Origin: a bacterium
GTDB taxonomy: Bacteria > Patescibacteriota > Dojkabacteria > JAKAPS01 > JAJZLI01
Assembly (NCBI GenBank): GCA_021810605.1
Contig: JAJZIL010000002.1
Span: 1,109-65,108 of the forward strand
DNA length: 64,000 nt
Reading direction: 5' to 3'
The position numbers and the translations under genes were made by a program. The notes beneath the pieces are model-generated. The model had not been told where the DNA came from. It was given only the letters and a program-made list of their open reading frames with translations, and searched no databases. Within the stretch, counting starts at the first letter, position 1. Every line of letters starts with the position of its first letter. Shown in pieces: positions 42,223 through 62,777 of this stretch.

Positions 42223-42831
42223 TAAAAAGGTAGGTCCCCTTCTATTCTACTCTATTTTAGACGTTTATCTTTCTTAAGGTATAAATTATTATGATATTGC
42301 AAAAATAGAAATTTTATTTATATATAATATATTATATATTTTTTTATTATTCTCTATTTATAGAATTTATATTTTATGAGAATTTTTTGTGAATAAATAT
42401 TTGTTTAGTATTATTTTTACTTTTTATCATAAATAAACCCAATTATTTTTATAATAAATACATATAGAGAAAGTATTACTGTTTGTGGAATAAATGTTTT
42501 AGTATCTGGAAGTATAGCAACTTATCCCCTATTGAGGATGCTGTGGAGAAGAAGTAGTCCAAGAAAAAGTTATTATAAGTAGATTTTATAGTTAAATTTT
42601 ACATATTTGATACTCCTACATATGCTAGAATTGCAGGTTTTTTAAAATTAGAAGTCATAAAAATGCTGAATACTAAAATATTAGGTAAAAATAAATCTAA
42701 TAAGTTCATAACTAACATTGAGAATATAGCATTATTTAGTAGTAACTTAAATCTAATTTTCTTTATTTTTCATATTATATATAATATATTATATACATTC
42801 TATATTTTTATAATTATTTTTTATATAAATT

Positions 42832-44742: not shown

Positions 44743-45147
44743 TTAATTACAAGTGTCTAGATTACTCCCATTGTAATTATATTCACCTGATCTGATAGAT
44801 TCATATTGATTAGCATTTCCTGGATAGAAAGTACATAATGTTCCTCCAGACCCACCATTTATATCATTGTTATATATAGAATATTGGAATATAGATGGAA
44901 CGGAAGTTAGGGATTGAGTATACAAGGTTACTTGTCTAGATGTATTTCGGTAACTAGATTGAGAATAGACTCCATATTGTTCTACTATATTTGTAGGACC
45001 TACACCAGCATAAACTACAGAGTCTCTATATAAAAAAATTCCGACAAACACAAAAAATATAGAAAAAACTATAACTTTGAGTAATATTTTCCTATTTTTT
45101 AAAAACTTCATTATATCTAATATATACAATATAATATAAAAATTCAA
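44743..45147 (-). CDS. small secreted protein sharing its promoter and signal peptide with the 636-aa protein at 60867
   Basis: N-terminal 40 aa identical to the ORF at 60867. A likely SPase I site follows VYA, and the mature part of about 95 aa has a C-terminal Cys pair. The true start may be the MKFLKN Met at 45111. Confidence 0.5.
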   Translation of the reverse strand: MNFYIILYILDIMKFLKNRKILLKVIVFSIFFVFVGIFLYRDSVVYAGVGPTNIVEQYGVYSQSSYRNTSRQVTLYTQSLTSVPSIFQYSIYNNDINGGSGGTLCTFYPGNANQYESIRSGEYNYNGSNLDTCN

Positions 45148-45158
45148 TACTAATTAAT
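45027..45158. repeat. left copy of a 132-bp inverted repeat (131/132 identical) with 60856-60987
   Basis: Direct comparison of the reverse complement of 45027-45158 with 60856-60987 shows one mismatch. The repeat covers about 50 bp upstream, the ATG and about 40 codons. Confidence 0.9.
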
Positions 45159-45310
45159 ATATAGACAGAATTCTTATGATTAGTAGTTGTTTATAAGTTT
45201 AGTAAAAATCATATAATTTTGACTTTCAATATATTTATAATATAATAGATAATACCTTGTGAGTAAAGAGGTCTTTTACTAGAAATACTAGAAAATTTTT
45301 AATTTTTACA

Positions 45311-47251
45311 ATGAAGCAGTTATTAAATAAAATTTTTAATCCTCCATTAGATATTCTTGTTTTTAAAATATATATATATTGGTTTATATTAGGAATATCA
45401 ATTTTTATATTTTTTTCTAATTACTTATCAAGTCTATTTTCTGTATTAGTATTACTAATCTTCTCATCAGGATTTTTTATACTTAGATATTTAAGAGGTG
45501 ATATAAGATCTCCATTTAAGATAGCATACTTGTTTCCTATTTTTATGATATTTGCAATAATTTCTATTTTTTTTAGTGTTGATAAATATTCTTCAATACT
45601 TAGTATAATTACATATATCTCTTTATTTATAATATTTATGCTTTCTTTTGATATTTTGTCTGAACCTAAAGTATTGAAATGGTTTTTATCTTGGTTACTT
45701 TTTATAGGGGTAATATTTTCAATTGTAGGTATAATATATTATGTAGGGGGTTACAGTCATTATTTAGTAGGTACATTAAATAGTTCTTTTATATCTGCTG
45801 CTTTTTTACTATTGCTTATTCCAGTATCTTTCTATTTTTATATTTTTTCAAATAAAGTTTCTAGTAGAGTTATAAATCTCTTCACTCTTTCTATACTTAT
45901 TGTATCTTTATTTATAACTTACTCATATTTTTCATATATAGCATTATTTGTAGAAATAGTATTAATTCTATTTATATTAAGAAATTATTGGGTCAAAGAT
46001 ATAGTTAAAATCTTTTTTTTAATAGTTGTGTCAATAGTTTTATTTGTAGCAGTTAGTAAATATAATAAACCATTTGATAAAATATATAATACTTCTTCAA
46101 ATATAACTGATGTATTGAATATCTCATCCTCTCAAAGGATTAGACTTTATGAGAAAGAATGGAATATTTTTATTGCTAAACCTTTTTTTGGATATGGAAT
46201 TGGTACGAATAGTGATGTGTTTAAAAAATTCGAATATTCACCTTGGTTATATCTTTCTGGAGGATATAATGTATTTATCAATTTATTTTTAGATGTAGGT
46301 GTATTTGGTGGATTAGCTTTCTTAGGATTTTTTGGAATAATATTATATTATGGTTTTTATAGTATATTTTCTAATCCAAAATATCTTAAATTAAAAAATA
46401 ATCCTCCTAAAAATTTTATCTTTATTCCAATTTTTGTATCAATATTTGGTGTAATATTGTACTCTTTTTTTAATAATGATTTATCATATATTTCAATACT
46501 ACTACCCTTATTTATTTTTGTTGGGATCGTATTTAATTATTTTAATTTAGATAAGAAATTTTTTAAAACTTTCGCTAATATTGTATTTGTATTTTCAATA
46601 GTATTCATAGTTATATCTATAGATTTATATCTTTCTGGAGTATTTTTCAATAATGGTATAAAGGTTATAGATGGGAGTTTATCTTTAAATAAATCTCAAG
46701 TTAATTCTGCTTTAAATTATTTTGATAATTCTGCACTATTATTTCCATTTAATTTTAATACATACAATGAGATTGGAATTAGTTTTGAATATTTAAAAGA
46801 ATATAATAAATCTATTGATAATTTTAAAAAATCTCTAAGTATTAATAGTTATAATCCAAATGCTAATTATCAATTAGGAAGAGCATATTATAATAATAAT
46901 GAGTATAAAAAATCATTAGTATATTTCAAGAAAGCATATAATTTTAATAAATTATATAATCCATTATATCTTTTATCTTTAGGAGAATATTACTCTTTTA
47001 GAAAACAAAATTCTAAATCTGAAAAAATATATAAAGAAGCAATAAAATTGTTTCCACTAAAAAATCTAATACATGAAGATTATCCTCAAATATTTTATAA
47101 TAACAATGATAATTCTAACCTATCAAATATATATACAAATCTATATTCAATGACTAAAAATATTAAATATTATAATTTATATGAAGAGCTATCTCCTCTA
47201 CATATACAAACAAAAATTCCAATAAAGAAATCTGTGCCTAAGAAAAAATAA
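45311..47251 (+). CDS. O-antigen ligase (Wzy_C) family membrane protein with C-terminal TPR repeats
   Basis: About 10 TM helices, a large loop with R...KPFFGYGIG...GGYNVFINLFLDVGVFGGLAF (Wzy_C-like), and C-terminal TPR-like repeats (NANYQLGRAYYNNNEYKKSLVYFKKA). Confidence 0.6.
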   Translation: MKQLLNKIFNPPLDILVFKIYIYWFILGISIFIFFSNYLSSLFSVLVLLIFSSGFFILRYLRGDIRSPFKIAYLFPIFMIFAIISIFFSVDKYSSILSIITYISLFIIFMLSFDILSEPKVLKWFLSWLLFIGVIFSIVGIIYYVGGYSHYLVGTLNSSFISAAFLLLLIPVSFYFYIFSNKVSSRVINLFTLSILIVSLFITYSYFSYIALFVEIVLILFILRNYWVKDIVKIFFLIVVSIVLFVAVSKYNKPFDKIYNTSSNITDVLNISSSQRIRLYEKEWNIFIAKPFFGYGIGTNSDVFKKFEYSPWLYLSGGYNVFINLFLDVGVFGGLAFLGFFGIILYYGFYSIFSNPKYLKLKNNPPKNFIFIPIFVSIFGVILYSFFNNDLSYISILLPLFIFVGIVFNYFNLDKKFFKTFANIVFVFSIVFIVISIDLYLSGVFFNNGIKVIDGSLSLNKSQVNSALNYFDNSALLFPFNFNTYNEIGISFEYLKEYNKSIDNFKKSLSINSYNPNANYQLGRAYYNNNEYKKSLVYFKKAYNFNKLYNPLYLLSLGEYYSFRKQNSKSEKIYKEAIKLFPLKNLIHEDYPQIFYNNNDNSNLSNIYTNLYSMTKNIKYYNLYEELSPLHIQTKIPIKKSVPKKK

Positions 47252-47258
47252 TGAATGT

Positions 47259-49715
47259 TTAATTACTTTCTATTGTAGAGACTATATCTCCATTTTTAAG
47301 ATTTATAAGTTTTACTCCAGATGTGTGTCTATTGTGTTTTGGAATAGAAGCAATATCCATTTTTATAATCTGACCTTTGTTTGATATAATCAATATTTCA
47401 CTGCTTTGAGTATTTATCATTTTCATTGAAGCTATTTTCCCAGTTTTAGAATTTATTTTTGATGCAAATACTCCCTTTCCACCTCTTATTTGAGTATTAT
47501 ACTTTTCTACTGGAGTTCTTTTTCCAAAACCATTTTCACTAACAATTAATACATCTGTTCCTTCCTCTACTATACCTACTCCTACTACTTCATTATCAGT
47601 AGTCATCTTAATTGATCGTACTCCTCTAGATGCTCTTCCTGTTTCTCTTACATCACTTTCTTTAAATCTAATTGAATTTGCATTCTTTGTTACTACTATA
47701 ACTTCTTTTTCTCCATCTGTTTTTTCTACCCATTTTAGTAAATCACCTTTATCTAATTTGATAGCTATAATTCCATTTTTTCTTATATTTGAAAGATCTG
47801 ATATTTTTGTTTTTTTTACAATACCATTCTTTGTTGTCATAAATAGATATTTATAGTCATTTCCAGATTTATCTAGAGTTATTACTGCATTAATATTTTC
47901 TCCTCCTTCAAGATTAATAAAATTAACCATAGGTTGACCTTTTGCAACTCTTGAGAATTCTGGTATCTCATAGACTTTTGATTGGAATACTCTTCCTTTA
48001 TTAGAGAAAAACAAAATATCATTTAGAGTTGTAGTCATTATTGCATGTGATATTACATCTTCTTCTTTAGTAGTCATACCTATTATTCCCTTTCCACCTC
48101 TATTTTGAACTTTATATGTATCAGGAGAAATTCTTTTTATATATCCAGTCTTACTAATAGTTATTAAAGTTTCCTTATCTTCTACAATATCTTGAATATC
48201 AAACTCTCCTACCTTTGATTTAACTACTTTTGTAAGTCTTTCATCACCATACTTTTCTATAATCTCTCTACTTTCATTTTTGACTATTTTAACGATATTA
48301 AATTTATCAGAAAGTATAGTTTCAAGTTTACTAATAAGCTCTCTTATACTTTTTAGTTCATCTTCAATTTTTTGTCTTTCTAAAGCAGCAAGTCTTCTAA
48401 GTTGCATATCTAATATTGCTTGAGATTGAATCTCTGATAGATTAAAATTTTTAATTAATTTTAATTTAGCTTCATCAGCATCTTTAGAAGATCTTATAAT
48501 ATTAATTACTTCATCAATATTATCTATAGCAATCTTTAAACCTTCTAATATATGTTCTCTCTCTTTAGCTTTTCGAAGATCAAATTCAGTTCTTTTCTGT
48601 ATTACCGTTATCCTGTGTTCTATAAATATTTCTAATATATTTTTTAGATTAAGTGTTTTTGGTTCCCCATCAACTAGTGCTAGCATATTAGAATTAAATA
48701 CAGATTGTAGTTCAGTAAATTTAAATAATTTATTAATTATTATTTTTGCTCTTGCATCTTTTTTAAGATCTAATACTATTCTTATATCAGTTTTTGCACT
48801 TTCATCTCTAATATCTGAAATTCCTTCAATTTTTTCATTTTTTACTAAATCTGCAATTTTGATTATAAGTCTTGCTTTATTTACTTGAAAAGGAAGCTCA
48901 GTTATAATTATCTGCATTTTTCCAGATTTATTTTCTACTATTTCTGCCTTTCCTCTTGTGAGTACCCTACCTCTTCCTGTCATATACATATTTAAAATTT
49001 CATCTCTATCATATATAGTTCCAAGAGTAGGAAAATCTGGACCTTTTATATATTCCATTAAATCTTCAACTTTAACATCATCATCCAATTTATTTGTTTC
49101 AGAAACAGATTTAATATTATCAAGTATATATATAATTGCACTCATTACCTCTTTTAGGTTATGAGGTGGGATTTTAGTAGCCATTCCTACAGCAATACCT
49201 TCTGTTCCATTTAATATCAAATTAGGTACTGCTGTAGGTAATATATCTGGTTCTTGAAGTCTTCCATCATATGTATCATGAAAATTAACAGTTTCTTTTT
49301 CTATATCTTTGATAATTTCATCAGATATTTTTTCTAGTTTTGCCTCAGTATATCTCATTGCTGCTGGACTATCACCATCAATAGAACCAAAATTCCCCTG
49401 ACCTTTAACTAAGGGGTATCTTAGTGAAAAATATTGAGCCATATGAACAAGAGCATCATATATGGAAATATCTCCATGTGGATGATATTTTCCCATCACA
49501 TCTCCAACAATTCTAGAACTTTTACTATATTTAGCTGAAAAATATAATCTATCTTCATGCATAGTATATATTATTCTTCTTTGCACTGGTTTTAATCCAT
49601 CTTTTGCATCAGGTAATGCTCTAGCAGTAATAACACTCATTGAGTAGTTAATATAACTTTTTTTCATTTCATCTGAGATGTTTACTATTCTAATTTTATC
49701 TATAGTATTATCCAT
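47259..49715 (-). CDS. gyrA: DNA gyrase subunit A
   Basis: Active-site region [10 protein letters not shown] and a QRR-like region KYHPHGD. Beta-pinwheel C-terminus, 818 aa. Confidence 0.9.
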
Positions 49716-49719
49716 ATTC

Positions 49720-51642
49720 TTATATATCTATTTCTGCTGATTTAGCATTTAATTGTATAAATTTTTTTCTAGGAGGAACTTCTGTTCCCATTAACATTTC
49801 AAAAGTTTTATCTGCTTCTTCAAAGTCATCTATATTGATTTGCTTTAGTACCCTTGTTGCAGGATTCATTGTAGTATCCCATAATTGTTCAGAATTCATT
49901 TCTCCCAACCCTTTATACCTTTGTATAGAATTAATTTTGATATTTTCTGATTCTAATCTCTTTGTTATCTTCTCTAAATCACTATCATCTAATGCCCAAA
50001 TTTCATCTTTTGTATTTGATGTAGTGAGTTTATATAAAGGAGGTTGTGCTATATATACATATCCTTTTTCTAGAACTTCTTTGAGATGTCTATATAGGAA
50101 AGTTAATATTAATGTAGCAATATGCTCCCCATCTACATCTGCATCTGCCATTATTATAATTTTTTTGTATCTTATTTTATCTATATTGAGAGTATCTGCT
50201 ATTCCTGTACCTAATGCTATTACAAAATCTTTTAATTTATCATTTTCTAATACTTTATCAATTCGATATTTTTCACTATTTATAGGTTTTCCTGTTAGAG
50301 GTAATATTGCCTGAGTCATTCTATCTCTAGCAGCCTTTGCACTTCCTCCTGCACTATCTCCTTCTACAATAAATATTTCACATCTTTCAGGATCTTTTTC
50401 ACTACAGTCAGATAACTTTCCAGGAAGAGCTCCACCTTCAAAAACTCCTTTTCTTATAACTGAATCTCTAGCAGCTTTTGCAGCCTTTCTTGCTTTTGCA
50501 GCAAGTAATACTTTATCCATAATATTCTTTGCATCTTTTGGATTTTCCTCTAGATATGTTTCTAATTCTTTTGCAACAATGTTTCTGGTGATTGTTTGAA
50601 TTTCAGAATTATTTAATTTCATTTTAGTCTGTCCCTCAAATTGTGGATTCTCAAGTTTTACAGATATGATAGCAGTAAGACCTTCTCTTACATCATCTCC
50701 TGTAAGTAAATCTTTAGTATCTTTTATCAATCCTATTTTTTTTGCATAATCATTAATTGTTTTTGTTAGAGCAGTTTTAAATCCAGTAATATGTGTTCCC
50801 CCTTCAGGATTATATATATTATTTGCAAAAGACATCATATTGTCTGAAATCTCAGTTGTATATTGCATTGCTACTTCTATCATAGAATTATCAACTTCTT
50901 TTTTTAAATATATAATATTAGTAATATTATGTTTATCTTTATCGAGAGTTCTTACATATGATTTTGCTCCACCTTCAAAATATATATAGTATGGTTGAGA
51001 ATAATTAAGACTTCTCTCATCTTGAAAAGTGAAGAGTATATTTCCTGTTAGATAAGCTTGCTCTCTTACTCTTCTAAGTAGTTGTTTACTATTTATATCT
51101 ATATCAGTAAATATACTTGTATCTGGTTTAAATGTTTGAATAGTTCCATGATCTTTGGCAATTGTATTTTCTTGTTTTTTTACTTGATATTGAGGAATAC
51201 CTTTATTGTATTCTTGTATATATCCTTCTCCTCCTATAAATGATTGAGTAGACATATATTCACTTAAAGCATTAGTACAAGAGACCCCTACTCCATGTAA
51301 TCCTCCTGATATTTTATATCCACCCTTGGATCCAAATTTCCCTCCAGCATGCAATACTGTCATAACAGTTTCTAAAGAAGATTTTTTTGTTTGTGGATGA
51401 ATTGCAACAGGAATTCCTCTTCCATTATCCTCAACTTGAATAGTTCCATCTTTAAAGATTCGTATATCTATTTTATTACAAAATCCAGCTAATGCTTCAT
51501 CAATAGCATTATCAATTACTTCATATATTATTTGATATACTCCATTTATATTTGTAGATCCAATATACATTGAAGGTCTTTTTCTAACAGCTTCTAGTCC
51601 TTCTAATACTACAATTGAATTTTCGTCATATGCCTCATCCAT
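49720..51642 (-). CDS. gyrB: DNA gyrase subunit B
   Basis: GHKL ATPase N-terminus, a Toprim EGDSAGGS motif, and PLKGK-like LTGKPIN. 640 aa. Confidence 0.9.
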
Positions 51643-51645
51643 AAT

Positions 51646-52245
51646 TTATATATTTAGTAATATATCTATTAATAAAATTTTCTCTGAAATATTATTTTGA
51701 ATTGATTTTTGAATCTCATTTAACTTTTTTAATTTATCTGTAACGTTATTAATACTCTTACAGTTTCTTATTATATACGAAATTATATTTATAATAAAGT
51801 CTTCTGTGTTATTTACTTCTTCTATATATTTTAATCTATTTTCAATATCCATATTAATAAAGGATTTTATATCATAAATCTGTACTTCACTTCTATCTTT
51901 TACAAGTATACATCTAGAATTAATAGTATCAAGAAGTTTAGTATGATTATTAATTGATATTATTATAGTAGTGTCACTATTAGTTTCTTCTAGTATCTTT
52001 AGCATTGAGTTTTGGGCTTCTATTGTAATAGATTCTATTTTTATAAGTATTACTCTTTGAGTATTTGAAAATGATTTATATTTTAAATTATTTTTTATAT
52101 CATTAATATCTCTGATTTTTATATTTCCCTTAAATTTTAAAAAATCAGGATTATATTTAGAAGTATTTGTAATAAAACTTTTTGCAAAAGAATCTATATT
52201 ATTTTCTATATTAGATTCATATATATAACTTTGTGCCATGGACAA
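51646..52245 (-). CDS. holB: short DNA polymerase III delta'-like clamp-loader subunit
   Basis: AQNSMLKILEE resembles the delta'/gamma sensor region (AANALLKTLEEP). 199 aa, upstream of gyrB. Confidence 0.4.
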   Translation of the reverse strand: MSMAQSYIYESNIENNIDSFAKSFITNTSKYNPDFLKFKGNIKIRDINDIKNNLKYKSFSNTQRVILIKIESITIEAQNSMLKILEETNSDTTIIISINNHTKLLDTINSRCILVKDRSEVQIYDIKSFINMDIENRLKYIEEVNNTEDFIINIISYIIRNCKSINNVTDKLKKLNEIQKSIQNNISEKILLIDILLNI

Positions 52246-52287
52246 ATTCTATCATAATTTTTTAATCTTTAAAATTTTATTTTATTA

Positions 52288-54054
52288 GTGTATAAATTAT
52301 TTATGGATATTCTTGATATTTTAGTTTCAAAAGGAAAAATTAATCAACAGGTTGCAAATGATTTAAGAATTAAGTCTATTAAAGAGAGTAAAGATATTGA
52401 ATTTATTATTAATGAATCAAATGTTATTCCAGAAAATGATTTATTTGAAGCTAGGGGTATCCTTTATAATACACCTTTTAAAGACTTATCTACTATTACA
52501 AGTATTCCTAGAGATATATTTAATATATTTAATACTAGAGATTTAACAGAAAGGATTGTTCTTCCTTTTGATAAGACTGCAGAGGGGGCAATTATGCTTG
52601 CTATGCAGAATCCTTTGGATATACAACTTATTCAATATTTTGAAAATAAGTATAAAATAAAGATTGTCCCCTATCTAGCTATTCCAGAACAAATACTTAC
52701 TATTATTAATGCTCAGTCATCTCAACAAATTGAAAGTAATGTTATAGATGATGTAGAGGCAGCAAATACTGATTTTAATATTGAAGATGTTACTGGGAAT
52801 GTAGAGAACGTATCAGGTGATATTGATGGTTCTATAAAAAATGCTCCTATTGTCAAAATTGTGAATACAGTATTGGAATATGCTGCTAAAAATGGTGCTT
52901 CTGATCTACATATTGAACCTACAAAAAAAATATTAAGATTTAGGCTTAGAATTGATGGAGTTTTATATGAAAAATTATCAGTTCCATTGGCACTTGCTCC
53001 TGCAATAATCTCTCGTATAAAAATTCTTTCAAGACTTAAGATAGAAGAAAAAAGGCTTCCTCAAGATGGAAGATTTAATATAAAAGTAGGAAAAGAATAT
53101 ATAGATTTGAGAGTATCATCTCTTCCTACTGTTTATGGAGAGAAAATCGTTATTAGACTACTCAGAAAAGCTGAATCTATATCTGATATTAAAGATATAG
53201 GAATGCAAGGTAAAGCTTTTGAGGAATATAAGAATTCTCTGACTTTAACTAAAGGGATAATTCTTATTACAGGACCTACCGGTTCTGGAAAAACTCAAAC
53301 ATTAGCTACTTCCCTATCTTATGTTAATAAGCCAACTGTTAATATAATAACACTTGAAGATCCTGTTGAGATTGAGATTGATGGAGTTAATCAAGTTCAG
53401 GTAAACCCAGATGCTGGATTAGATTTTGCAACTGGACTACGTGCATTTTTAAGGCAGGATCCAAATATAATAATGGTAGGAGAAATAAGAGATGAAGAAA
53501 CTGCTAGACTTGCTACTCAAGCATCATTAACAGGACATCTAGTTTTATCTACAATACATACAACTTCTGCAGCAGGAGCTTTACCAAGGCTATTAGATAT
53601 GGGAATAGAGCCTTTTTTAATATCATCTACAATAGAATTGATAGTGGCTCAAAGATTAGTTAGAAAAATTTGTAATCATTGTCAAGAAGATTATATTCCA
53701 GAAGAGAGTGTATTGGATAATATAAAGGAAATTTTTAAGGATAGTAGTATAGATATAGCAAAATATGTTAAATCTTCACAAGAAAAAAACAATGTGATAT
53801 ATTTATCTAGAGGTAAAGGTTGCAATTATTGTTCTAATACTGGGTATTTAGGTAGAACTGGTATATTTGAAGTCTTAGTTGTTACTAATGATATTAGAAA
53901 ACTTATATTAGAAAAGGATTCGAGTGATAGCATAAATACAGTTGCAGTAAAGAATGGAATGATAACTTTAGTTCAAGATGGATACCTTAAAGTTATAGAT
54001 AAAATAACAACAATAGAAGAAGTTTATAGAGTTGCAAAGGAAAGTGTTGAATAA
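52288..54054 (+). CDS. pilB: type IV pilus assembly ATPase PilB (GspE family)
   Basis: Walker A GPTGSGKT, an Asp box, Walker B, and a tetracysteine motif CNHC...CNYC. Confidence 0.9.
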   Translation: MYKLFMDILDILVSKGKINQQVANDLRIKSIKESKDIEFIINESNVIPENDLFEARGILYNTPFKDLSTITSIPRDIFNIFNTRDLTERIVLPFDKTAEGAIMLAMQNPLDIQLIQYFENKYKIKIVPYLAIPEQILTIINAQSSQQIESNVIDDVEAANTDFNIEDVTGNVENVSGDIDGSIKNAPIVKIVNTVLEYAAKNGASDLHIEPTKKILRFRLRIDGVLYEKLSVPLALAPAIISRIKILSRLKIEEKRLPQDGRFNIKVGKEYIDLRVSSLPTVYGEKIVIRLLRKAESISDIKDIGMQGKAFEEYKNSLTLTKGIILITGPTGSGKTQTLATSLSYVNKPTVNIITLEDPVEIEIDGVNQVQVNPDAGLDFATGLRAFLRQDPNIIMVGEIRDEETARLATQASLTGHLVLSTIHTTSAAGALPRLLDMGIEPFLISSTIELIVAQRLVRKICNHCQEDYIPEESVLDNIKEIFKDSSIDIAKYVKSSQEKNNVIYLSRGKGCNYCSNTGYLGRTGIFEVLVVTNDIRKLILEKDSSDSINTVAVKNGMITLVQDGYLKVIDKITTIEEVYRVAKESVE

Positions 54055-54057
54055 TAT

Positions 54058-55122
54058 ATGGATATAGAAGATTTACTAAAATATACAATACAAAAAAATG
54101 CATCAGATCTTCATCTTGCAGTAGGATATCCCCCGATGGTTAGGGTTGATGGTGAGCTTGAAATTGTTAATAATGTTGCAATTGACGAGGATAGTATGAA
54201 GATACTTATAGATCCTGTAATGTCAGATTCTCAGAAAGAATTTTTAGAGGTGAATAAAGAAACAGACTTTTCATATGAGTATAAGCCTACTCAAGATAGA
54301 TTTAGAGTTAATGTTTTTCATGAAAAAAGTCATCTTGCAGGAGCATTTAGACTTATTCCTAAAGATATAAGAACCTTTGAAGAGTTATTTTTACCAGATG
54401 TAATGCATAAATTTACATCTTTACCTCAAGGGTTGGTTCTTTTGACTGGACCAACTGGACATGGTAAATCTACTACTCTAGCTGCAATGCTACAGGAAGT
54501 TAATATAACATATCCAAAACATATAATTACAATTGAAGATCCTATTGAGTATGTATATCCAAAAGCAAAGTCTCTTGTTGATCAAAGAGAGATAGGAGAA
54601 GATACTCATTCTTGGGATATATCTTTAAGAAGTGTACTTCGAGAAGATCCTGATGTTGTACTTATAGGAGAAATGAGAGATTTTGAAACTATATCTGCAG
54701 CAATAACAATTGCAGAGACAGGACATTTAGTATTTGCAACATTACATACTAATAGTGCTGCTCAAACAATTGATAGGATTGTTGATGTATTTCCAGATTT
54801 ACAACAAGCTCAGATAAGGAGTCAATTAGCTGATATTATTGAAGGTGTAATTGCACAAAGATTAGTTCCTACAATTGGTGGTGGAAGAAGAGCAGTATTA
54901 GAGGTATTATTAGCATCTTCAGCAGTAAGGAATATAGTAAGAGAAGGAAAAACATATCAATTAGATAGTATTATTCAGACAAGTGGCGATATAGGAATGA
55001 TTTCTTTAGAAAGATCTTTAGTATCATTAGTAAGAGAAGGAAAAATTACTATAGATGATGCACAAAAGTATTCTTCTAAGCCTGATGAAGTATTAAGATT
55101 ATTTAAAGGAAGAAGCGAATGA
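54058..55122 (+). CDS. pilT: twitching-motility retraction ATPase PilT
   Basis: Walker A GPTGHGKST, and AIRNIVREGK, the PilT signature AIRNLIRE. Confidence 0.9.
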   Translation: MDIEDLLKYTIQKNASDLHLAVGYPPMVRVDGELEIVNNVAIDEDSMKILIDPVMSDSQKEFLEVNKETDFSYEYKPTQDRFRVNVFHEKSHLAGAFRLIPKDIRTFEELFLPDVMHKFTSLPQGLVLLTGPTGHGKSTTLAAMLQEVNITYPKHIITIEDPIEYVYPKAKSLVDQREIGEDTHSWDISLRSVLREDPDVVLIGEMRDFETISAAITIAETGHLVFATLHTNSAAQTIDRIVDVFPDLQQAQIRSQLADIIEGVIAQRLVPTIGGGRRAVLEVLLASSAVRNIVREGKTYQLDSIIQTSGDIGMISLERSLVSLVREGKITIDDAQKYSSKPDEVLRLFKGRSE

Positions 55123-56339
55123 GTGATTTTGTTTATACTGCAGCTGATAAAGATGGGGCTATAACTCAAGGAAAGATGGATGCTCCTGATAAAGATACTG
55201 CTGCAAAGTTAATTATAGATCAAGGATTAACACCTCTAAAAATAAAAGATAGTCAATCAGTTTCAATTTCAAATTTAGGTGATTTAAATTCTATAAATAT
55301 TGGTAAAGTTCCTATAAAGGATAGAGTAATATTTTTTAGGCAATTATCAGTACTTATAACTTCTGGAATTCCAATAACTGAGGCTTTAGATATAACATAC
55401 AATCAGGTTACTAATAAAGGTTTAAAAAAAATACTTAGTAGTGTAGAAAAATCAGTTGAATCAGGGAAGAATCTTTCTGATTCATTTGAACCATATACAA
55501 AGCTTTTTACAAATATGCAGATTCAACTTTTAAGAACTGCAGAGGCTTCTGGATCTTTAGATTATATATTAAATAGAATGGCTGATGACATAGAGAATCA
55601 GAGTAATCTTATATCAAAGCTTAGAGGTGCTATGATATATCCTATACTTGTTATTATAGTCTCAATAGTTGTTATAGGATTAGTAGTGACTCAAATGGTT
55701 CCTCCAATGAAAAATCTCTATGAGAGTTTTAATGCTACTCTTCCATGGCCTACTCTGTTTATAATTGATGTGAGTAATTTTGTAACAAATTATTGGATTA
55801 TAGGTTTAATAATAGTAATAATACTAGCTATAGGATTTTATTTTTATACAAGATCAAATAGTGGTAAAAAAACAATTGATAGATTAGTATTAAAAATCCC
55901 TGTCTTTGGAGGATTAATTCAGAAAATTCAGATTATAAATTTTGGAAAAACTTTTGTTTTACTTACGAAGGCTGGAGTTCCTCTAGTTCAAGGTTTAAAT
56001 CTTATATCAAACTCTTTATCTAATACATTATTTAGAAATACAGTTAAGGAATTAGCAGATGAAGTTGAAAAAGGAAGATCATTATCAGATGTTATGTCCA
56101 AATATGATATTTTTCCTCCATTAATTTGGAGAATGATTGGTATTGGAGAGCAAACTGGAAATATGGAAGAAGTTGTTTCTAAGGTTCTTGATTATTATGA
56201 AGATGAAGTTCAGAATTTAATTGATAATCTATCAAAAATTCTTGAACCTGTTATTACAATATTTTTAGGTGTTATAGTAGGATTCATTGGAGTATCTGTC
56301 TACTTACCAATTTATACTTTAGGTAGTGTAATTAAATGA
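55119..56339 (+). CDS. pilC: type IV pilus platform protein PilC (GspF family)
   Basis: Two GspF repeats with 3 TM segments, 406 aa. Confidence 0.85.
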   Translation: MSDFVYTAADKDGAITQGKMDAPDKDTAAKLIIDQGLTPLKIKDSQSVSISNLGDLNSINIGKVPIKDRVIFFRQLSVLITSGIPITEALDITYNQVTNKGLKKILSSVEKSVESGKNLSDSFEPYTKLFTNMQIQLLRTAEASGSLDYILNRMADDIENQSNLISKLRGAMIYPILVIIVSIVVIGLVVTQMVPPMKNLYESFNATLPWPTLFIIDVSNFVTNYWIIGLIIVIILAIGFYFYTRSNSGKKTIDRLVLKIPVFGGLIQKIQIINFGKTFVLLTKAGVPLVQGLNLISNSLSNTLFRNTVKELADEVEKGRSLSDVMSKYDIFPPLIWRMIGIGEQTGNMEEVVSKVLDYYEDEVQNLIDNLSKILEPVITIFLGVIVGFIGVSVYLPIYTLGSVIK

Positions 56340-56404
56340 TATTATTGACAAAAATTACATATATTGTACACTATATATAAATTAATTTTATATTAAAAAA
56401 AATT

Positions 56405-57088
56405 ATGAAAGGTATTGAAAAAGAGAATAAAAAAGGTTTTACTCTTGTTGAACTTTTAATAGTTATGGCTATTATAGGTATCTTGATAGCAATAGCTATT
56501 ATTGGATTAGGTTCAGCACAAGCAACTGCTAGAAATGAATCTAGACAAACTGCTGTAAAAGGTTTATCAGGGTTAATAGAAACATATTATGGTGACTCTG
56601 GAGGTACTTATCCTAGTAATGTGGGTATAAATTTAAGTACCACAGCTTCAGGATATGCAGCAGGGTATGTACAATTTGAATCTCCATTAGATGGTACATA
56701 TTTTACTACTGGAACAAATTTATGTAAGAATATAGATGCTCCTTTAAAGTTAAATAATGGAACTTTTGATTCAGCTGACTGTTCATCTAAAGTTTCTTTT
56801 GCAGTATCGTCAGGTAGTACTATAAATGGAGCTACTACTACTGATACTAATTCTGAAACTTATTACTTCTATATACCATTTACATCATCAACTCCATCTG
56901 CAGGAGGTGCTGCTACTGTAACTGTTGGTGCAACATCAGGAAGTCCTGTTACAGGTTATATTATTGGTGCTTGTTTAGAAAATAGTGGTATTTTTGCTTA
57001 TTCTTCAAATGGATCAAATGCTCCATTTACTACTAATGCTAATTCTATAAATGCAGATAGTGGTTCAGTGAAAATTACTTGTGGATAA
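56405..57088 (+). CDS. pilA: type IVa major pilin, copy 1
   Basis: Prepilin leader MKGIEKENKKG|FTLVELLIVMAIIGIL with G-1, F+1, E+5. Two Cys pairs; the protein ends ...KITCG. Confidence 0.85.
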   Translation: MKGIEKENKKGFTLVELLIVMAIIGILIAIAIIGLGSAQATARNESRQTAVKGLSGLIETYYGDSGGTYPSNVGINLSTTASGYAAGYVQFESPLDGTYFTTGTNLCKNIDAPLKLNNGTFDSADCSSKVSFAVSSGSTINGATTTDTNSETYYFYIPFTSSTPSAGGAATVTVGATSGSPVTGYIIGACLENSGIFAYSSNGSNAPFTTNANSINADSGSVKITCG

Positions 57089-57898
57089 ATGTATTTAGTA
57101 TTTGATATATTTGTATTTATATTTGGTGCTGTTGTTGGGAGTTTTTTGAATGCAACAGTATATAGAGTAAAAAATAAAAAAGATTTTATAATATCAAGGT
57201 CTGAGTGTGAAAGTTGTAAACATAAACTTTCACCATTAGACCTTGTTCCAGTTTTAAGTTATATTTTTCTTCAAGGAAAATGTAGATATTGTAAAGAAAA
57301 AATCTCCTCTATTAATTTTTTTTTTGAGATTATATCAGGTATAGTATTTCTACTCTATTTTAATTTTTTATCGTTTAATTATTTAATTAATAATTCTGCT
57401 TTTGTTTATATAAATATATTATTTTATCTTTTTATAATCTGTATATTTTTATATATTGGATTATATGATTTTTTCTATTATGAGATATCAGATAAGCTTA
57501 TTTTTTACTCCTCTATTTTAGTCTTTATTTATTTCCTAATATCTTATTATTTTGGATATATATCCTTATATATTATTATAAATCATATAGTTACAGGAAT
57601 AATCGTTGCTGGATTATTCTTACTTATAATTCTTATTACCAAAGGAGAAGGTATGGGTGGTGGAGATATGAAATTAGTATTTCTAATGGGTCTTATATTA
57701 GGTTATCCTGCAATATTATATGTATTATTTGTATCCTTTGTATTAGGTGCTGTTATAGGATTAATATTAATACTTATTAAAAATAAAACTTTAAAATCAT
57801 CTATACCTTTTGCCCCTTTCTTGTCTTCCTCTATAATCTTGTATATAATTTTTAGTGTATATTTATTAAGATTAATATCTTATCTTTATATTAGATAA
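57089..57898 (+). CDS. pilD: prepilin peptidase/N-methyltransferase PilD (A24 family)
   Basis: N-terminal tetracysteine CESC...CRYC, a polytopic membrane profile, and a GGGD-type catalytic region (GMGGGDMK). Confidence 0.85.
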   Translation: MYLVFDIFVFIFGAVVGSFLNATVYRVKNKKDFIISRSECESCKHKLSPLDLVPVLSYIFLQGKCRYCKEKISSINFFFEIISGIVFLLYFNFLSFNYLINNSAFVYINILFYLFIICIFLYIGLYDFFYYEISDKLIFYSSILVFIYFLISYYFGYISLYIIINHIVTGIIVAGLFLLIILITKGEGMGGGDMKLVFLMGLILGYPAILYVLFVSFVLGAVIGLILILIKNKTLKSSIPFAPFLSSSIILYIIFSVYLLRLISYLYIR

Positions 57899-57903
57899 AT
57901 AAG

Positions 57904-58572
57904 ATGAAAAAAGGTTTTACTCTTGTTGAACTTTTAATAGTTATGGCTATTATAGGTATCTTGATAGCAATAGCTATTATTGGATTAGGTTCAGCACAAG
58001 CAACTGCTAGAAATGAATCTAGACAAACTGCTGTAAAAGGTTTATCAGGGTTAATAGAAACATATTATGGTGACTCTGGAGGTACTTATCCTAGTAATGT
58101 GGGTATAAATTTGAGTACTACAGCTCCAGGATATGCAGCAGGGTATGTACAATTTGAATCTCCATTAGATGGTACATATTTTACTACTGGAACAAATTTA
58201 TGTAAGAATATAGATGCTCCTTTAGAGTTAAATAATGGAACTTTTAATTCAGCTGACTGTTCATCTCAAGTTTCTTTTGAAGTATCTAAATTTGGTCAGG
58301 TAGCTAATATAAGTACAGGTACTACTGATACTAATTCTGAAACTTATTATTTCTATATACCATTTGTATCATATTCTCCAGGTGGAAATGATTATGCTAT
58401 TCCAACTGTTGGTACACTACCAGGAAGTCCTGTTACAGGTTATATTATTGGTGCTTGTTTAGAAAATAGTGGTATTTTTGCTTATTCTTCAAATGGATCA
58501 AATGCTCCATTTACTATTAATGCTAATTCTATACATGTAGACATTAGAGAAGTACAAATTACTTGTGGATAA
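57904..58572 (+). CDS. pilA: type IVa major pilin, copy 2 (mosaic paralogue of copy 1)
   Basis: Leader MKKG|FTLVELL. About 400 nt of the 5' region and about 150 nt of the 3' region are nearly identical to copy 1, with a divergent central cassette. Confidence 0.85.
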   Translation: MKKGFTLVELLIVMAIIGILIAIAIIGLGSAQATARNESRQTAVKGLSGLIETYYGDSGGTYPSNVGINLSTTAPGYAAGYVQFESPLDGTYFTTGTNLCKNIDAPLELNNGTFNSADCSSQVSFEVSKFGQVANISTGTTDTNSETYYFYIPFVSYSPGGNDYAIPTVGTLPGSPVTGYIIGACLENSGIFAYSSNGSNAPFTINANSIHVDIREVQITCG

Positions 58573-58751
58573 ATATGTTTATCATTTGTATTAGGTACTG
58601 TTATAGGATTAATATTAATACTTATTAAAAATAAAACTTTAAAATCATCTATACCTTTTGCCCCTTTCTTGTCTTCCTCTATAATATTATATATAATTTT
58701 TAGTGTATATTTATTAAGATTAATATCTTATCTTTATATTAGATAAATAAG
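58573..58751 (+). pseudogene. pilD: pilD remnant (first about 10 nt fused to last about 175 nt)
   Basis: 58575-58751 is near-identical to the pilD 3' end at 57730-57900, but the interior is missing. Its frame gives only MFIICIRYCYRININTY*. Confidence 0.8.
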
Positions 58752-59558
58752 ATGAATAAAGGTTTTACCCTTGTTGAATTATTAGTAGTTATTGCTATAT
58801 CTATTTTCCTTATTGGGATGGCTTTAGTTGGAACTCAAGGCACTCAGGCACAAGTAACTCTTAATGCTGCAGCTGCAAGTTTTATATCTAATGTAAATTT
58901 GATGAAAAATGATGCAATTGCAGGAGATGTAAGTTTAGGTTCTGACTATGTTTCTCCTTCAACTAATTGGGTTTATGGTTTTTCTATTTTTCCAGAAGCA
59001 TTATCTTCAACTCCATCATCAAATCCAGAATTATGTCAAAGTACTGTATCAAATGAATGTGCAGCTGGATATTATACTGCGATCATAGAAGAGAATGTTC
59101 AAAGTGCTTCTTATGGATATGGAAACTATTCTCCTCCATTTAATAATTCATTAAATTCTGTATATAATTTAAATGATTATGCATATCCTGAAAGTTTAAT
59201 AAATCATAATATTTATATAAGAAAGATATTTTCTTTAACACAAACTCAAGTATCTTATAATAGGAATGCATATAATTGGGTTTATTATAACTCATTACCT
59301 GCTGGAGTTAGTATATCTTATCCCAATACAGTTGTTTCAAATGAATATTATTTCCCTGTATTTCAAGAGTTAACAGGATATATATATCTTTATAACTTAA
59401 ATACAGGTAATTTAGTAACAAGTTCTAGTAATACATCTTTATCAGTAGTATTTAATTTATCTTATGAAGGTTATACTATTCCTATAACTTTTTATGATTT
59501 ATATAATAGTAGTAATGAGTCTAATTCTTTTTCTGAAGGAATAATTACAAATGGATAA
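58752..59558 (+). CDS. minor (pseudo)pilin with prepilin leader
   Basis: MNKG|FTLVELLVVIAI class III signal peptide. Confidence 0.75.
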   Translation: MNKGFTLVELLVVIAISIFLIGMALVGTQGTQAQVTLNAAAASFISNVNLMKNDAIAGDVSLGSDYVSPSTNWVYGFSIFPEALSSTPSSNPELCQSTVSNECAAGYYTAIIEENVQSASYGYGNYSPPFNNSLNSVYNLNDYAYPESLINHNIYIRKIFSLTQTQVSYNRNAYNWVYYNSLPAGVSISYPNTVVSNEYYFPVFQELTGYIYLYNLNTGNLVTSSSNTSLSVVFNLSYEGYTIPITFYDLYNSSNESNSFSEGIITNG

Positions 59559-60189
59559 CAAAAAAGGTTTTACTTTAATAGAAATTCTTATAACAATAGT
59601 TTTATTAGGATTTTTACTTATTGCTGTACTTGAGGCAGAAGCTTTATCAATAGATAATAATTATTATAATGTATATAGGTTATATTCAAGAGAAATTCTT
59701 TCATATGAGCTTTCGTATGCTCATATTTGGGCTAATGAAGGAAATATTAACTGGAATAGTCCTACTCCAGAGCAGATTTCTTGTCCAGGTTTTGGAGATT
59801 CTTCTGTTATATCAGGAGGCTCAAATTTGGGTGATTGTTTATCTATAAACGATGTAGGACAATTTTTAAATATAGCTACTGTAGGAACATATAGTATTCC
59901 TTTGCCTAAAGATATTGGTATATTCCTATATATTACACCTACTACTACGCATACACAAGCAGAAGTGTATGCTTTTGTCCTCTGGTCTTTTTCAACTAAG
60001 GGAGTAAAATCAAATCTTGAAGAGCAAGATAGTGAAATTTTTGGATCTAGCAGTACAACTTCACCATATTACTATATAAAAAGTACCTTAGGATCTACTT
60101 CTACATTTCTTAATTATTTAAATGGAGAAAATACTCTTCAATTTAATAATGCAATTTCTGGAAGTGATATTATTACTAAATTAAATTAA
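59551..60189 (+). CDS. minor (pseudo)pilin with prepilin leader
   Basis: MDNKKG|FTLIEILITIVLLG. Confidence 0.75.
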   Translation: MDNKKGFTLIEILITIVLLGFLLIAVLEAEALSIDNNYYNVYRLYSREILSYELSYAHIWANEGNINWNSPTPEQISCPGFGDSSVISGGSNLGDCLSINDVGQFLNIATVGTYSIPLPKDIGIFLYITPTTTHTQAEVYAFVLWSFSTKGVKSNLEEQDSEIFGSSSTTSPYYYIKSTLGSTSTFLNYLNGENTLQFNNAISGSDIITKLN

Positions 60190-60191
60190 TT

Positions 60192-60860
60192 ATGTTAAAT
60201 AAAATTTCAAAATTAAATAATATAGGATTTACTTTAGTAGAAACTCTTATTGCTATGGCAATATTCACATTTATTGCAGTTCTAATTGCAGAATCATTTG
60301 CAAATACTATTTTTTATACTAGTAACCTATCTTCAGAGATAAAGATTGAAAATCAAGTACAAAGTTCATTGGAATATATAAAAAGAGAAATGAGATTATC
60401 TGCATATACTACATTTAATGATCAAGGTACAGTAACACCACCTAATACTTGTGATTATTTAGGGCAACAATTATATTATGGGAATTCTCCAATTTGTAAT
60501 TCTCCTTCATCAGGAGGATCATTTAATTTATATAATGCTTCAGATCAATTAATTGGAAGTATTACTCTTCAATCAGGTATATTAGATTTTACTAATTCAT
60601 CAATTTCTGGATCTCCAATATCAATTCAATTAAATTCTAATGGGGTTAATATAGAGAATATTAGTTTTTTTTATGATAATTATGATTTTTCAGGGACTTC
60701 ATATAGTGGAAAAAGTTATATATTTCCTTATATAAATATTTTTATTGAAGGTTGTCAGAAAAGTTATTATAATTACCTATTTAATAGTTCTTCTAATACT
60801 ACTCCTGCATGTGTTCAACTTATAACAACTGCTACAAATGAGAATTTTGTATATCATTAA
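60192..60860 (+). CDS. minor (pseudo)pilin with prepilin leader
   Basis: ...NNIG|FTLVETLIAMAIFTF. Confidence 0.7.
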   Translation: MLNKISKLNNIGFTLVETLIAMAIFTFIAVLIAESFANTIFYTSNLSSEIKIENQVQSSLEYIKREMRLSAYTTFNDQGTVTPPNTCDYLGQQLYYGNSPICNSPSSGGSFNLYNASDQLIGSITLQSGILDFTNSSISGSPISIQLNSNGVNIENISFFYDNYDFSGTSYSGKSYIFPYINIFIEGCQKSYYNYLFNSSSNTTPACVQLITTATNENFVYH

Positions 60861-60987
60861 TTAGTATTGAATTTTTATATTATATTGTATATATTAGATA
60901 TAATGAAATTTTTAAAAAATAGGAAAATATTACTCAAAGTTATAGTTTTTTCTATATTTTTTGTGTTTGTCGGAATTTTTTTATATA
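60856..60987. repeat. right copy of the 132-bp inverted repeat (pairs with 45027-45158)
   Basis: See the left copy. It covers the promoter and 5' end of the ORF at 60867. Confidence 0.9.
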
Positions 60988-62777
60988 AAAATTCTTTAGT
61001 GCATGCAAGTATATCTTCTATTGATAATAATTTTTTTACTACAGAAGCTAGTTGTTATCCAAATGATTCAGGTTCATATAGTTGTGGTAGTTCAGGAACT
61101 AGTAGTAGTTCAGGAACTAGTAGTAGTTCAAGTACTAGTTGTACTCAAACTAGTCCAACTAATTCAACATCAAGTCCATATAATTGTGGGAGTGCAGGAA
61201 CTAGTGGTGGAGGAACTACTTGTTATCCAACTGATTCAGGATCAAACCCATATGGTAATTGTGGGAGTTCAATAACACCAAAGACTCAGACTGTGAATGT
61301 GCAAGAAGATTATTGGACACAATCAAAACCTACAGGGTCTGCCACAATTGAAAATACTGACACTCTTAGTGGTGTATTACCTACTACAAATGTTTATCAT
61401 GTAATAACTACCGGTGTAGTAGTATTATTTTCAGGAAGTTATACTTATACTTGTAATGCTCCTGCACAGACTAAATCTTACAATTCTACAACAGAAGTTA
61501 CTACTGTAACTAATTATTCTTGTTCTACTCCAGCTCCTAAGAATTGTACAGACGGAGCTTCAGTTACAGAAACAGCAAATTTATCATCAGATTATCCTGG
61601 AGAGACATTAACATATTCTGATACGTTATGTTCATATACTGCTTCTGTAAATACTATTGTAAATCATGAGTATTATAAATATCAGATAAGTGTAGGTTCA
61701 CCTACATCAACATCTCCTTTTTATGTAGAGGAACATTCTCCTATTCCTAGCTCAGCTAGTACTTATGGTCAGATTGCTTATCAAGTTACCGTATCATGTG
61801 TACCACCATCATCGACCAGTGGGTTATCAAGTTATTACTCTTACTGTACTCCTGGATATCAAGATATAGCTGAATCTATTCCTGTAAAGTGGTTGAGTTT
61901 TTCTTATTCATCTGATATTTCAGAGAATAATTCTATTTGTAATACAGATGTATATTCCCCGAGTGATCCATGCACAGTCTATTTTGCAGTAACACCTTTT
62001 ACTTCCGGAGAAAATTTACCTTCTTCATACTCTTCTTATACAACACCTATTAATGTATATTTTTCTAATTCAGATGTTTTTTCTGGTAGTTTTGGGGCAA
62101 CATCATATTTTGGAAATTATACTGCTATAAATAATCCTTCATCAATAGAGGCTACTACAAATAATGTTAATTTAATTATTTTTTCTTCTTGGATACAAGC
62201 ACAAAATGGAAATACTTATTCTCCTAATGGTTATAATATTAATACACCTCCAAACTCTTCTACTATTGAAGGAAGTGCTTTTTTATTAGGTGGTTTAATA
62301 GAATATAAAACTTCAATATTAAATTTTTTAAATCCATCTCCTCAGCAAAAAACATTTTCTGTTAATAAATTAAATTTAATATCTAGTAGTAGTGGTACTC
62401 CTGTGTATGATTTTAATTTTTTTGCAACCCTATATTGTCAATTTAGTTCAAATTGTGAAAATAGTTCAGGAAATACATATTTGTATAGAAATGGAGTCTT
62501 AAATATTAACGGTATTCAGTCATACTCTCCTTCTACTTGTAATAGTAGTGGTGGTGCCAATTGGTATTATTATTCTTCTTCACAAACCTTTTCAAGTTCT
62601 TCTTTTTGTCCTTCAAATGATATAGTTTTAGTAAATGGAGATGTGGATATAACAAATAATATTACTGGATCTACTAATCTTCTAATCATATCAAATGGTA
62701 GTATTACTGTTTCTGGGAATGTTACCAATATAGATGCATTTTTGATGGCTATGTATCAAATTAAAATATTAAATTGA
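60867..62777 (+). CDS. large Ser/Thr/Cys-rich secreted protein, candidate pilus-associated adhesin
   Basis: Signal peptide shared with the 44743-45147 gene, a low-complexity GTSSSSGTSSSSSTSC tract, and many paired Cys. It sits at the distal end of the minor-pilin block. Confidence 0.55.
   Translation: MNFYIILYILDIMKFLKNRKILLKVIVFSIFFVFVGIFLYKNSLVHASISSIDNNFFTTEASCYPNDSGSYSCGSSGTSSSSGTSSSSSTSCTQTSPTNSTSSPYNCGSAGTSGGGTTCYPTDSGSNPYGNCGSSITPKTQTVNVQEDYWTQSKPTGSATIENTDTLSGVLPTTNVYHVITTGVVVLFSGSYTYTCNAPAQTKSYNSTTEVTTVTNYSCSTPAPKNCTDGASVTETANLSSDYPGETLTYSDTLCSYTASVNTIVNHEYYKYQISVGSPTSTSPFYVEEHSPIPSSASTYGQIAYQVTVSCVPPSSTSGLSSYYSYCTPGYQDIAESIPVKWLSFSYSSDISENNSICNTDVYSPSDPCTVYFAVTPFTSGENLPSSYSSYTTPINVYFSNSDVFSGSFGATSYFGNYTAINNPSSIEATTNNVNLIIFSSWIQAQNGNTYSPNGYNINTPPNSSTIEGSAFLLGGLIEYKTSILNFLNPSPQQKTFSVNKLNLISSSSGTPVYDFNFFATLYCQFSSNCENSSGNTYLYRNGVLNINGIQSYSPSTCNSSGGANWYYYSSSQTFSSSSFCPSNDIVLVNGDVDITNNITGSTNLLIISNGSITVSGNVTNIDAFLMAMYQIKILN

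Follow-up and report, generated by a model that had tools for sequence, protein, structure and literature searches.

Gene conversion rather than an inversion switch as the probable basis of an inverted promoter and signal-peptide module around gyrase and pilus genes in a Dojkabacteria genome

The locus described here raises the question of why two genes for exported proteins with unrelated bodies, lying 15.7 kb apart in opposite orientations, begin with practically the same 132 nucleotides (nt). It is located in a stretch of 64,000 nt (hereafter the window) from contig JAJZIL010000002.1 of assembly GCA_021810605.1, which represents an uncultured lineage of the Dojkabacteria known only from metagenome assemblies. 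The two copies form an inverted repeat around a segment with gyrase and type IV pilus genes, and a gene for a Xer-like tyrosine recombinase lies nearby. A preliminary description had read this arrangement in two ways at once: as ongoing gene conversion or recombination between the copies, as opposed to old paralogy, and as a shufflon-like inversion system driven by the recombinase. Based on the comparison of strains and species presented here, we consider that a 5′ gene module was transplanted from the pilus locus and then kept homogeneous by intrachromosomal gene conversion, that is, by concerted evolution (probability of about 0.8); this is a new instance of a known process. The elements on which the argument depends are as follows (aa, amino acids).

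60856-60987, plus strand: right (donor-type) copy of the core, comprising the minor-pilin stop codon, 42 nt of intergenic DNA and codons 1-28 of the 624-aa gene; its upstream region is conserved in three other species
45027-45158, minus strand: left (recipient) copy of the core, providing the 122-aa gene with codons 1-28 and the 47 nt upstream of them
60817-61020, plus strand: full extent of the right-hand homology, in which 60817-60855 is the 3′ end of the minor-pilin gene, 60988-61020 corresponds to codons 29-39 of the 624-aa gene, and the core lies in between
44994-45199, minus strand: full extent of the left-hand homology, in which 45159-45199 preserves the minor-pilin 3′ end in decayed, non-coding form and 44994-45026 encodes RDSVVYAGVGP, the end of the signal peptide
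60903-62777, plus strand: gene of a 624-aa exported Ser/Thr/Cys-rich protein, between the minor-pilin genes and the response-regulator and pilMNO genes, native owner of the leader
44743-45111, minus strand: gene of a 122-aa exported protein, a chimera of residues 1 to ~39 from the 624-aa gene and a conserved small protein (residues ~40-122)
60867-60895, plus strand: promoter-like motif TTGAAT-17 nt-TATATT, ending 7 nt before the ATG and duplicated at 45147-45119 on the minus strand
60192-60860, plus strand: last minor-pilin gene (222 aa, N_methyl motif), whose 3′ end is the source of the upstream flank of the left copy

A repeat search delimits the inverted arms at 44994-45158 and 60856-61020 (165 nt, 92% complementary, spacing of 15,697 nt), and pairwise alignment of the core 45027-45158 with the inverted 60856-60987 reproduces the 131 identical positions out of 132 (99.2%) that had first drawn attention to the locus. 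The sole mismatch (45106 on the left, 60908 on the right) is a synonymous AAG/AAA difference in codon 2 (Lys). The flanks had been described as diverging quickly; homology in fact persists for about 35 nt on each side at 64-76% identity, and only then is the background reached. In right-side coordinates, identity amounts to 75.6% at 60817-60855, 99.2% in the core and 63.6% at 60988-61020, and beyond 60817-61020 it falls to ~40%, the random level in this ~26% G+C DNA. The likely start codons are ATG 60903 and ATG 45111 (MKFLKNRK...), which are used by public gene calls and at which the orthologues begin; with these starts the proteins measure 624 and 122 aa instead of the initial 636 and 134, and each core copy spans 47 nt upstream of the ATG and 28 codons instead of about 50 bp and 40 codons. 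The core coincides with the promoter-like motif, the start codon and the signal peptide and, in the 624-aa gene, core and weaker flank together cover the whole signal peptide up to ..VHA/S. A 43-nt core probe has only two matches in the 64-kb window, namely the two repeat copies (0 in 100 shuffles), and reveals no third copy of the leader there.

The origin of the module can be read from the orthologues of the two genes in related species. Orthologues of the 624-aa protein (P0004, 55% identity; P0005 and P0006, 53-54%) are encoded at the same site after the minor pilins, and the N-terminus of P0004 (MKFIKNRKIIIGAVVFSVFFVFIGIFLYRD, beginning MKFIKNRKIII...FLYRD) is a leader of the same type. 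Upstream of this big gene, the hexamers TTGAAT and TATATT are invariant in the window and in the related contigs L026, L013 and L016, with a spacer that varies. The 122-aa protein is matched by its orthologues only in the body, from about residue 40 (..IVEQY..QVTLxxQSLTSVPSIFQYSIYN.., the stretch from QVTL to the end being its core motif). These orthologues possess unrelated leaders of their own: MNKKYIVLFLVV.. (MNKKYIVLF...) in P0002, MNKHNIKYIVLS.. (MNKHNIKYIV...) in P0003 and MKRKIYIKSFAL.. (MKRKIYIKSF...) in the 89-aa open reading frame (ORF) of L016. Upstream of the core, the left copy retains a decayed, non-coding stretch derived from the final ~13 codons of the minor-pilin gene (31 of 41 positions identical, versus the ~40% background), and the intergenic region between wzy and the small gene is ~110 nt longer in the window than in the related contig L012. 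The leader being native to the big gene, while small-gene leaders are unrelated, a minor-pilin remnant accompanies the left copy and the spacer is longer, the module thus went from the pilus locus to the small gene; a stretch of ~205 nt would have replaced the 5′ end of the latter. The left copy's 3′ flank (RDSVVYAG) is nearer to the family consensus (RDYVVHA, RNSFVYAG) than is the KNSLVHAS of the present big gene in the window; therefore the first copy is not brand new. The small gene of the species carrying P0004 was not found, and the 801-nt contig encoding P0002 cannot be tied to that species. As to the relatives themselves, PilB-based scans of genome contigs gave one useful relative, L016 (PilB 71% identical; a GTDB representative metagenome-assembled genome, MAG), and those of metagenome contigs gave only L017 (34% identical).

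More recent exchange between the copies is documented by a sister strain, represented by nine contigs (L018-L025 and one not shown). Over 17.1 kb, contig L018 differs from the window by 16 substitutions (99.81% identity), and four of these fall within 31 nt of the left core (45061, 45079, 45081 and 45091), a cluster expected by chance anywhere in the alignment with P ~1.6e-5. At all four sites the left copy of the window equals its right copy, and the right copy of the sister strain is of the window type (L004 and L007 are identical to the window there). The link between these contigs and the strain is provided by MAG GCA_021844045.1, from which both L007 and L020 derive, and by L004, which over 4.2 kb shows no difference from L007; a single-nucleotide polymorphism (SNP) sets both apart from L001. 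The four changes in the left copy of the sister strain entail one amino-acid change (L11I): codon 11 is ATT, as in the big gene of L026, and CTC in both window copies. Between species the orthologous region of the core is far less conserved, with ~83-84% identity in L026 and ~75% in L013. Within the genome the core is thus much more similar than its flanks or its orthologues, and the differences between strains form a contiguous patch that matches the other copy. Because the sister-strain-specific differences cluster where the left copy of the window equals the right one, we infer gene conversion, and the two copies have thus recombined in a non-reciprocal manner. On the simplest history suggested by the strain comparison, a patch of 31-79 nt would have been converted from right to left in the window lineage, after an older homogenisation by which the core would already have been held at 96% while the flanks sank to ~70%.

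45061-45091, minus strand: minimal recent conversion tract, defined by the sites 45061, 45079, 45081 and 45091; the maximal tract is 45027-45105

This favours the first of the two preliminary proposals, exchange between the copies, which is borne out by the step in identity from 99% to 64-76%, the unrelated leaders of the small-gene orthologues and the cluster of four substitutions in 31 nt. Old paralogy under purifying selection alone would account for an overlap of the core with promoter-like motif, start codon and signal peptide. However, synonymous and non-coding positions are identical as well, versus ~17% difference in the same region between species, the small-gene orthologues carry other leaders, and the left copy of the sister strain tolerates four changes including L11I, so that constraint is not absolute; we regard this explanation as very unlikely. 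An assembly artefact in the form of a chimeric or mis-joined contig was suggested by the break of MAG contig L007 at 11 nt inside the right repeat, but both junctions recur with identical sequence in contigs of 16 or more independent assemblies, and one 33-kb contig covers both copies, which makes its probability practically negligible.

Does the segment between the copies invert? Exact-protein look-ups retrieved the 624-aa gene on 14 contigs, the 122-aa gene on 12 and a strain variant of the latter on 9; at least 16 assemblies (ENA, NCBI, JGI, Logan) are represented. Not one of the 34 junction-spanning contigs (13 at the right junction, 21 at the left) is in the inverted arrangement; all are as in the window, including the 33-kb contig that crosses both repeats. 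Inverted molecules would have been caught by these look-ups, since the inversion encodes the same two proteins. The comparison of orthologous loci for both configurations, proposed at the outset as a check, returned the window orientation only. In both L012 (~80% DNA identity) and L016, gene order and orientation are those of the window for the CDGSH gene, the recombinase gene, the small gene, wzy, gyrA, gyrB and holB, and from pilB onwards; consequently, the arrangement is ancestral and stable. In L016, which covers both ends, no inverted repeat was detected beyond chance-level AT-rich matches. The idea that the present orientation is itself the product of a past inversion was rejected, as L012 and L016 share it. 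The segment and its surroundings comprise the following genes.

45311-47251, plus strand: Wzy_C/TPR membrane protein gene, divergent from the 122-aa gene and first gene of the bracketed segment
47259-52245, minus strand: gyrA (47259-49715), gyrB (49720-51642) and a holB-like delta′ gene (51646-52245)
52288-60189, plus strand: pilB, pilT, pilC, major pilin, prepilin peptidase, second major pilin and two minor pilins
62788-63180, plus strand: response-regulator gene, followed by pilM and two further genes
43753-44733, plus strand: Xer-like tyrosine recombinase gene, convergent with the 122-aa gene, with 10 nt between the stop codons
42175-42208, no strand assigned: candidate dif site ATAACTGAGTATAA-TCACCC-TTATACTCAGTTAT, with a 28-bp core at 42178-42205 in an 11+6+11 layout

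The bracketed segment (15.7 kb, 13 genes) contains the genes initially listed for it (Wzy/TPR, gyrA, gyrB, holB-like and pilB to the minor pilins), but the pilus operon does not end there. As the 624-aa gene sits between the minor pilins and the response regulator and pilM, the operon runs across the right repeat and continues with the response regulator, pilM and two further genes. An inversion would therefore part the pilB-to-minor-pilin genes from the 624-aa gene, the response regulator and pilMNO. A crossover between the repeats would leave each of the two genes with promoter and leader, and neither coding sequence would be altered.

The proposal of a programmed site-specific inversion, in which the neighbouring tyrosine recombinase would operate a shufflon- or fim-like switch on pilus or surface proteins, has in its favour that a recombinase gene with visible catalytic residues lies ~0.3 kb from the left repeat and that the repeats are inverted and each heads a gene for an exported protein, that of the right copy within the pilus operon. 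The distance had first been taken as 10 bp, a value that corresponds to the gap between the recombinase gene and the stop codon of the 122-aa gene; between the end of the recombinase gene and the repeat, the distance is 294 nt for the core and 261 nt for the extended arm. The protein has Phage_integrase and SAM-like domains, and its translation, tested for the R-K-H-R-H/W-Y catalytic residues, displays the motifs GMRISE, GKGKK, HSLRHG, GHES and NKYMH. The best NCBIfam models are XerC (188.8 bits) and XerD (183.2 bits), both short of their curated cut-offs (335 and 330), while models of FimB/FimE-type invertases reach only 22-29 bits. The recombinase is Xer-like, as first described; its supposed link to inversion of the repeat lacks support. 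It occupies the same position in L012 and L016, 5-14 nt from the stop of a small gene that has its own leader, and L016 is devoid of a comparable repeat. No second tyrosine recombinase is present in the window.

A more plausible substrate is found 1.5 kb upstream of the recombinase gene, in a 1.1-kb non-coding region (41741-42831). There, a palindrome with the 28-bp core ACTGAGTATAA-TCACCC-TTATACTCAGT (42178-42205) occurs once in the window and is identical in L012 (12776-12809) and L016 (about 568-601). The arms of the palindrome match perfectly over 14 nt, have ATAA/TTAT on their inner side and enclose a centre of 6 bp, and only a block of ~100 nt around it is conserved in a region that is otherwise barely alignable between species. 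The dif sites of E. coli (GGTGCGCATAA-TGTATA-TTATGTTAAAT) and B. subtilis (ACTTCCTAGAA-TATATA-TTATGTAAACT) have the same 11+6+11 layout (PMC3025954, PMC5357621), and gene and site are kept together in single-recombinase systems such as XerS/difSL (PMC5357621). Neither repeat arm of the present locus contains a dif-like half-site with up to 2 mismatches. The palindrome at 42175-42208 is rather likely to be a dif site and is a probable substrate of the recombinase; judging from these sequence features, the latter appears to be a housekeeping Xer chromosome-dimer resolvase outside the repeat system, and the xer/dif module is probably served by this single recombinase. Strand and composition biases are suggestive of a replichore boundary (terminus) near 42-46 kb, but no more than suggestive: at 1-38 kb every ORF of 100 aa or more is on the plus strand, as is each of the large ORFs that follow up to 44.7 kb, GC skew is +0.2 to +0.35 left of 44.7 kb, and its cumulative rise stops at ~44-46 kb. 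To the right of 44,743 the strands are mixed and the cumulative skew flattens; positions 13500-19500 of L001 were also examined. The 1.1-kb region is free of ORFs, is present in the relatives and shows the highest polymorphism between the strains compared, with many SNPs and short indels at 41877-42727. No Rfam family was matched in it, a sub-threshold STnc240 match over the palindrome being taken as spurious.

Taken with the uniform orientation of all 34 junction contigs, these data argue against the shufflon-like system of the preliminary description: the relatives retain the recombinase gene where the repeat is lacking, a conserved dif-like site is available elsewhere, both repeats hold a complete promoter and leader so that a flip alters no coding sequence, and the pilus operon would be split. 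Site-specific inversion by the Xer-like protein is, in our view, most improbable.

An inversion could also be driven by homology. In such a RecA-dependent reversible switch, of the Campylobacter fetus sap type, the gene body behind the pilin cluster would be swapped and pilus expression would vary at low frequency. A stretch of 132 identical nt is ample for homologous recombination. The copies demonstrably recombine, as indicated by the conversion tract, the geometry would exchange the gene downstream of the minor pilins, and up to 50% of the recombination events between tuf genes give inversions (PMC6735719). However, no inverted form is seen in any assembly or related species, the segment has no unique promoter inside it, the promoter-like motif being in both copies, and gyrA, gyrB and holB would be an unusual cargo; we regard a switch of this kind as quite unlikely. 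In its most speculative form, to which we would give slightly less credit still, the repeats might mediate a rare, reversible inversion of the gyrase and pilus segment that acts as a low-frequency phase switch of the type IV pilus. The 122-aa gene would then stand in place of the 624-aa gene behind the pilin cluster, the switch would be upheld by the same recombination that homogenises the repeats, and phase switching would occur in an uncultured and very AT-rich bacterium. Overall, an inversion switch of whatever mechanism is unlikely, and most of the small credit left to it goes to homology rather than to the Xer-like recombinase. Rare RecA-mediated inversion as a mere by-product of the repeats is possible.

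Several points weigh against the transplantation of a module maintained by conversion. The window type of the right copy in the sister strain depends on one MAG and on the SNP shared by L004 and L007, and no single contig of this strain covers both copies. Part of the conservation of the core could be due to strong selection on promoter and signal peptide. The copy count covers the 64-kb window, and a third leader copy or a second tyrosine recombinase is possible elsewhere. Consensus assemblies report the majority form, so that a small inverted minority could possibly go unseen.

With these reservations, the following history can be proposed for a conversion-maintained module. In an ancestor of the species, ~205 nt from the pilus locus, consisting of the last codons of the final minor-pilin gene, the intergenic region with the promoter-like motif and the first ~39 codons (signal peptide) of the 624-aa gene, would have been transferred as an inverted copy to the 5′ end of a conserved gene for a small exported protein, 15.7 kb away. 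As the comparative data suggest, this copy would have displaced the upstream region and leader of the small gene. The flanks would later have decayed to 64-76% identity, while non-reciprocal homologous recombination would have made the central 132 nt uniform again on at least two occasions, the latest event being, according to the strain comparison, the right-to-left patch of 31-79 nt in the window lineage. This recombination presumably depends on RecA; ruvC, ruvA and ruvB are found in the window (38926-40962), and recA was not seen in it. The repeats are long enough for an occasional crossover, and hence an inversion, to arise as a by-product.

The small protein would share both its promoter and its signal peptide for export with the pilus-associated protein, and co-expression and co-export of this small conserved protein with the latter are the probable consequence of the transfer. 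That TTGAAT/TATATT acts as a genuine promoter is suggested by the cross-species invariance of the hexamers alone, since a consensus promoter scan was not above chance in this AT-rich DNA. The two proteins themselves have no meaningful match in Pfam or NCBIfam, with only sub-threshold EpsG and MG319 hits on the hydrophobic leader; a PDB sequence search with the 624-aa protein gave no match, and AlphaFold2 models from 4-sequence alignments were too poor to use (mean pLDDT, a per-residue confidence score, of 33.6 for the 624-aa and 52.9 for the 122-aa protein). The locus would thus offer a natural example of a promoter and signal-peptide module that moves between unrelated genes and is then held identical by short-patch gene conversion. 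It is also a warning to those who scan genomes that a tyrosine recombinase gene next to an inverted repeat does not by itself amount to an inversion switch.

Other variation was observed in the window. Two near-identical major pilin genes (56405-57088 and 57904-58572) flank the prepilin peptidase gene, and direct repeats are found at 56419-56718/57897-58196 (98%) and at 57726-57984/58574-58832 (89%). The second pilin gene is absent from contigs L001, L002 and L005, and in the L001 alignment the endpoints of the deletion are in the 259-nt direct repeats; either pilin copy number varies between strains, or the copies were collapsed in some assemblies. In a minor-pilin gene, 3 sites within 9 nt (59217-59225) distinguish the window from L001-L003, L005 and L006. 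Contig L004 differs at 13 sites in ~100 nt (60188-60284), where the last minor-pilin gene begins and the contig itself ends, and no internal donor was found for this patch of 13 substitutions. The start of wzy/TPR is closely preceded by two tandem copies of a 9-nt unit (TACTAGAAA x2; 45277-45294), of which the sister strain (L018-L020) has only one. The only Rfam matches at gathering threshold in the window are a tmRNA gene (20120-20532, minus strand, 52.6 bits) and a tRNA gene (32818-32901, plus strand).

How does this locus compare with known systems? Shufflons consist of several short repeats of alternating orientation that delimit multiple segments, are served by a dedicated recombinase (Rci), have a single constant 5′ part outside the invertible DNA and show mixed orientations in every culture. 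The resemblance to the R64 shufflon (Rci, 19-bp sfx sites, alternative PilV C-termini) lies in the tyrosine recombinase gene by inverted repeats, the type IV pilus cluster and the shared N-terminal part. Unlike in shufflons, only two copies are present in the window, with a core of 132 nt as opposed to repeats of ~19 bp; the recombinase, for which XerC and XerD are the best models, is present in L012 and L016 independently of the repeat; and a single orientation characterizes 34/34 junction-spanning contigs, in the majority form given by assemblies. The locus also differs from fimS-type invertons, in which a small promoter-bearing segment between short inverted repeats governs expression through its orientation, for the promoter-like motif is inside both repeat copies and the segment, with 15.7 kb and 13 genes, is not small.

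In the sap system of Campylobacter fetus, studied by Dworkin and Blaser, S-layer genes are reportedly switched by inversion between the conserved 5′ regions of oppositely oriented sapA homologues. Oppositely oriented exported-protein genes that share a 5′ region including upstream sequence are likewise found here. However, sap has a single promoter inside the invertible element, the orientation of which determines the gene expressed, and both orientations are readily found, whereas here the motif occurs in both copies, housekeeping genes lie in between and one orientation is seen. Literature searches on the assembly accessions and on C. fetus sapA/RecA retrieved no papers.

The neighbouring recombinase has its own parallels in XerS/difSL, XerH/difH and archaeal XerA/dif, with which it shares the position of a Xer-family gene near a unique site of two 11-bp inverted arms around a 6-bp centre; for instance, xerS is directly beside difSL, and some archaea have a xerA/dif module (PMC5357621). 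Unlike these single-recombinase systems, the arms here are perfectly palindromic over 14 nt and the protein is under all Xer equivalog cut-offs, its activity being a prediction.

The closest known behaviour is the concerted evolution of the tufA and tufB genes of Salmonella, which are inverted relative to each other and co-evolve by RecA-dependent gene conversion, with inversions resulting from part of the recombination events and being costly through operon disruption (PMC5485169, PMC6735719). As in Salmonella enterica, two inverted homologous sequences on one chromosome are near-identical through contiguous non-reciprocal tracts, and a crossover between them can invert the DNA in between, the inverted form being selected against in the tuf case. 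The differences are that the present locus shares a 5′ module of 132-205 nt between genes with unrelated bodies, as opposed to a whole gene of 1.2 kb, that the spacing is 15.7 kb instead of 762 kb, that no inversion has been seen here and that a role of RecA is presumed. Nevertheless, the defining features of tuf-type concerted evolution of inverted repeats that could be tested are all found at this locus.

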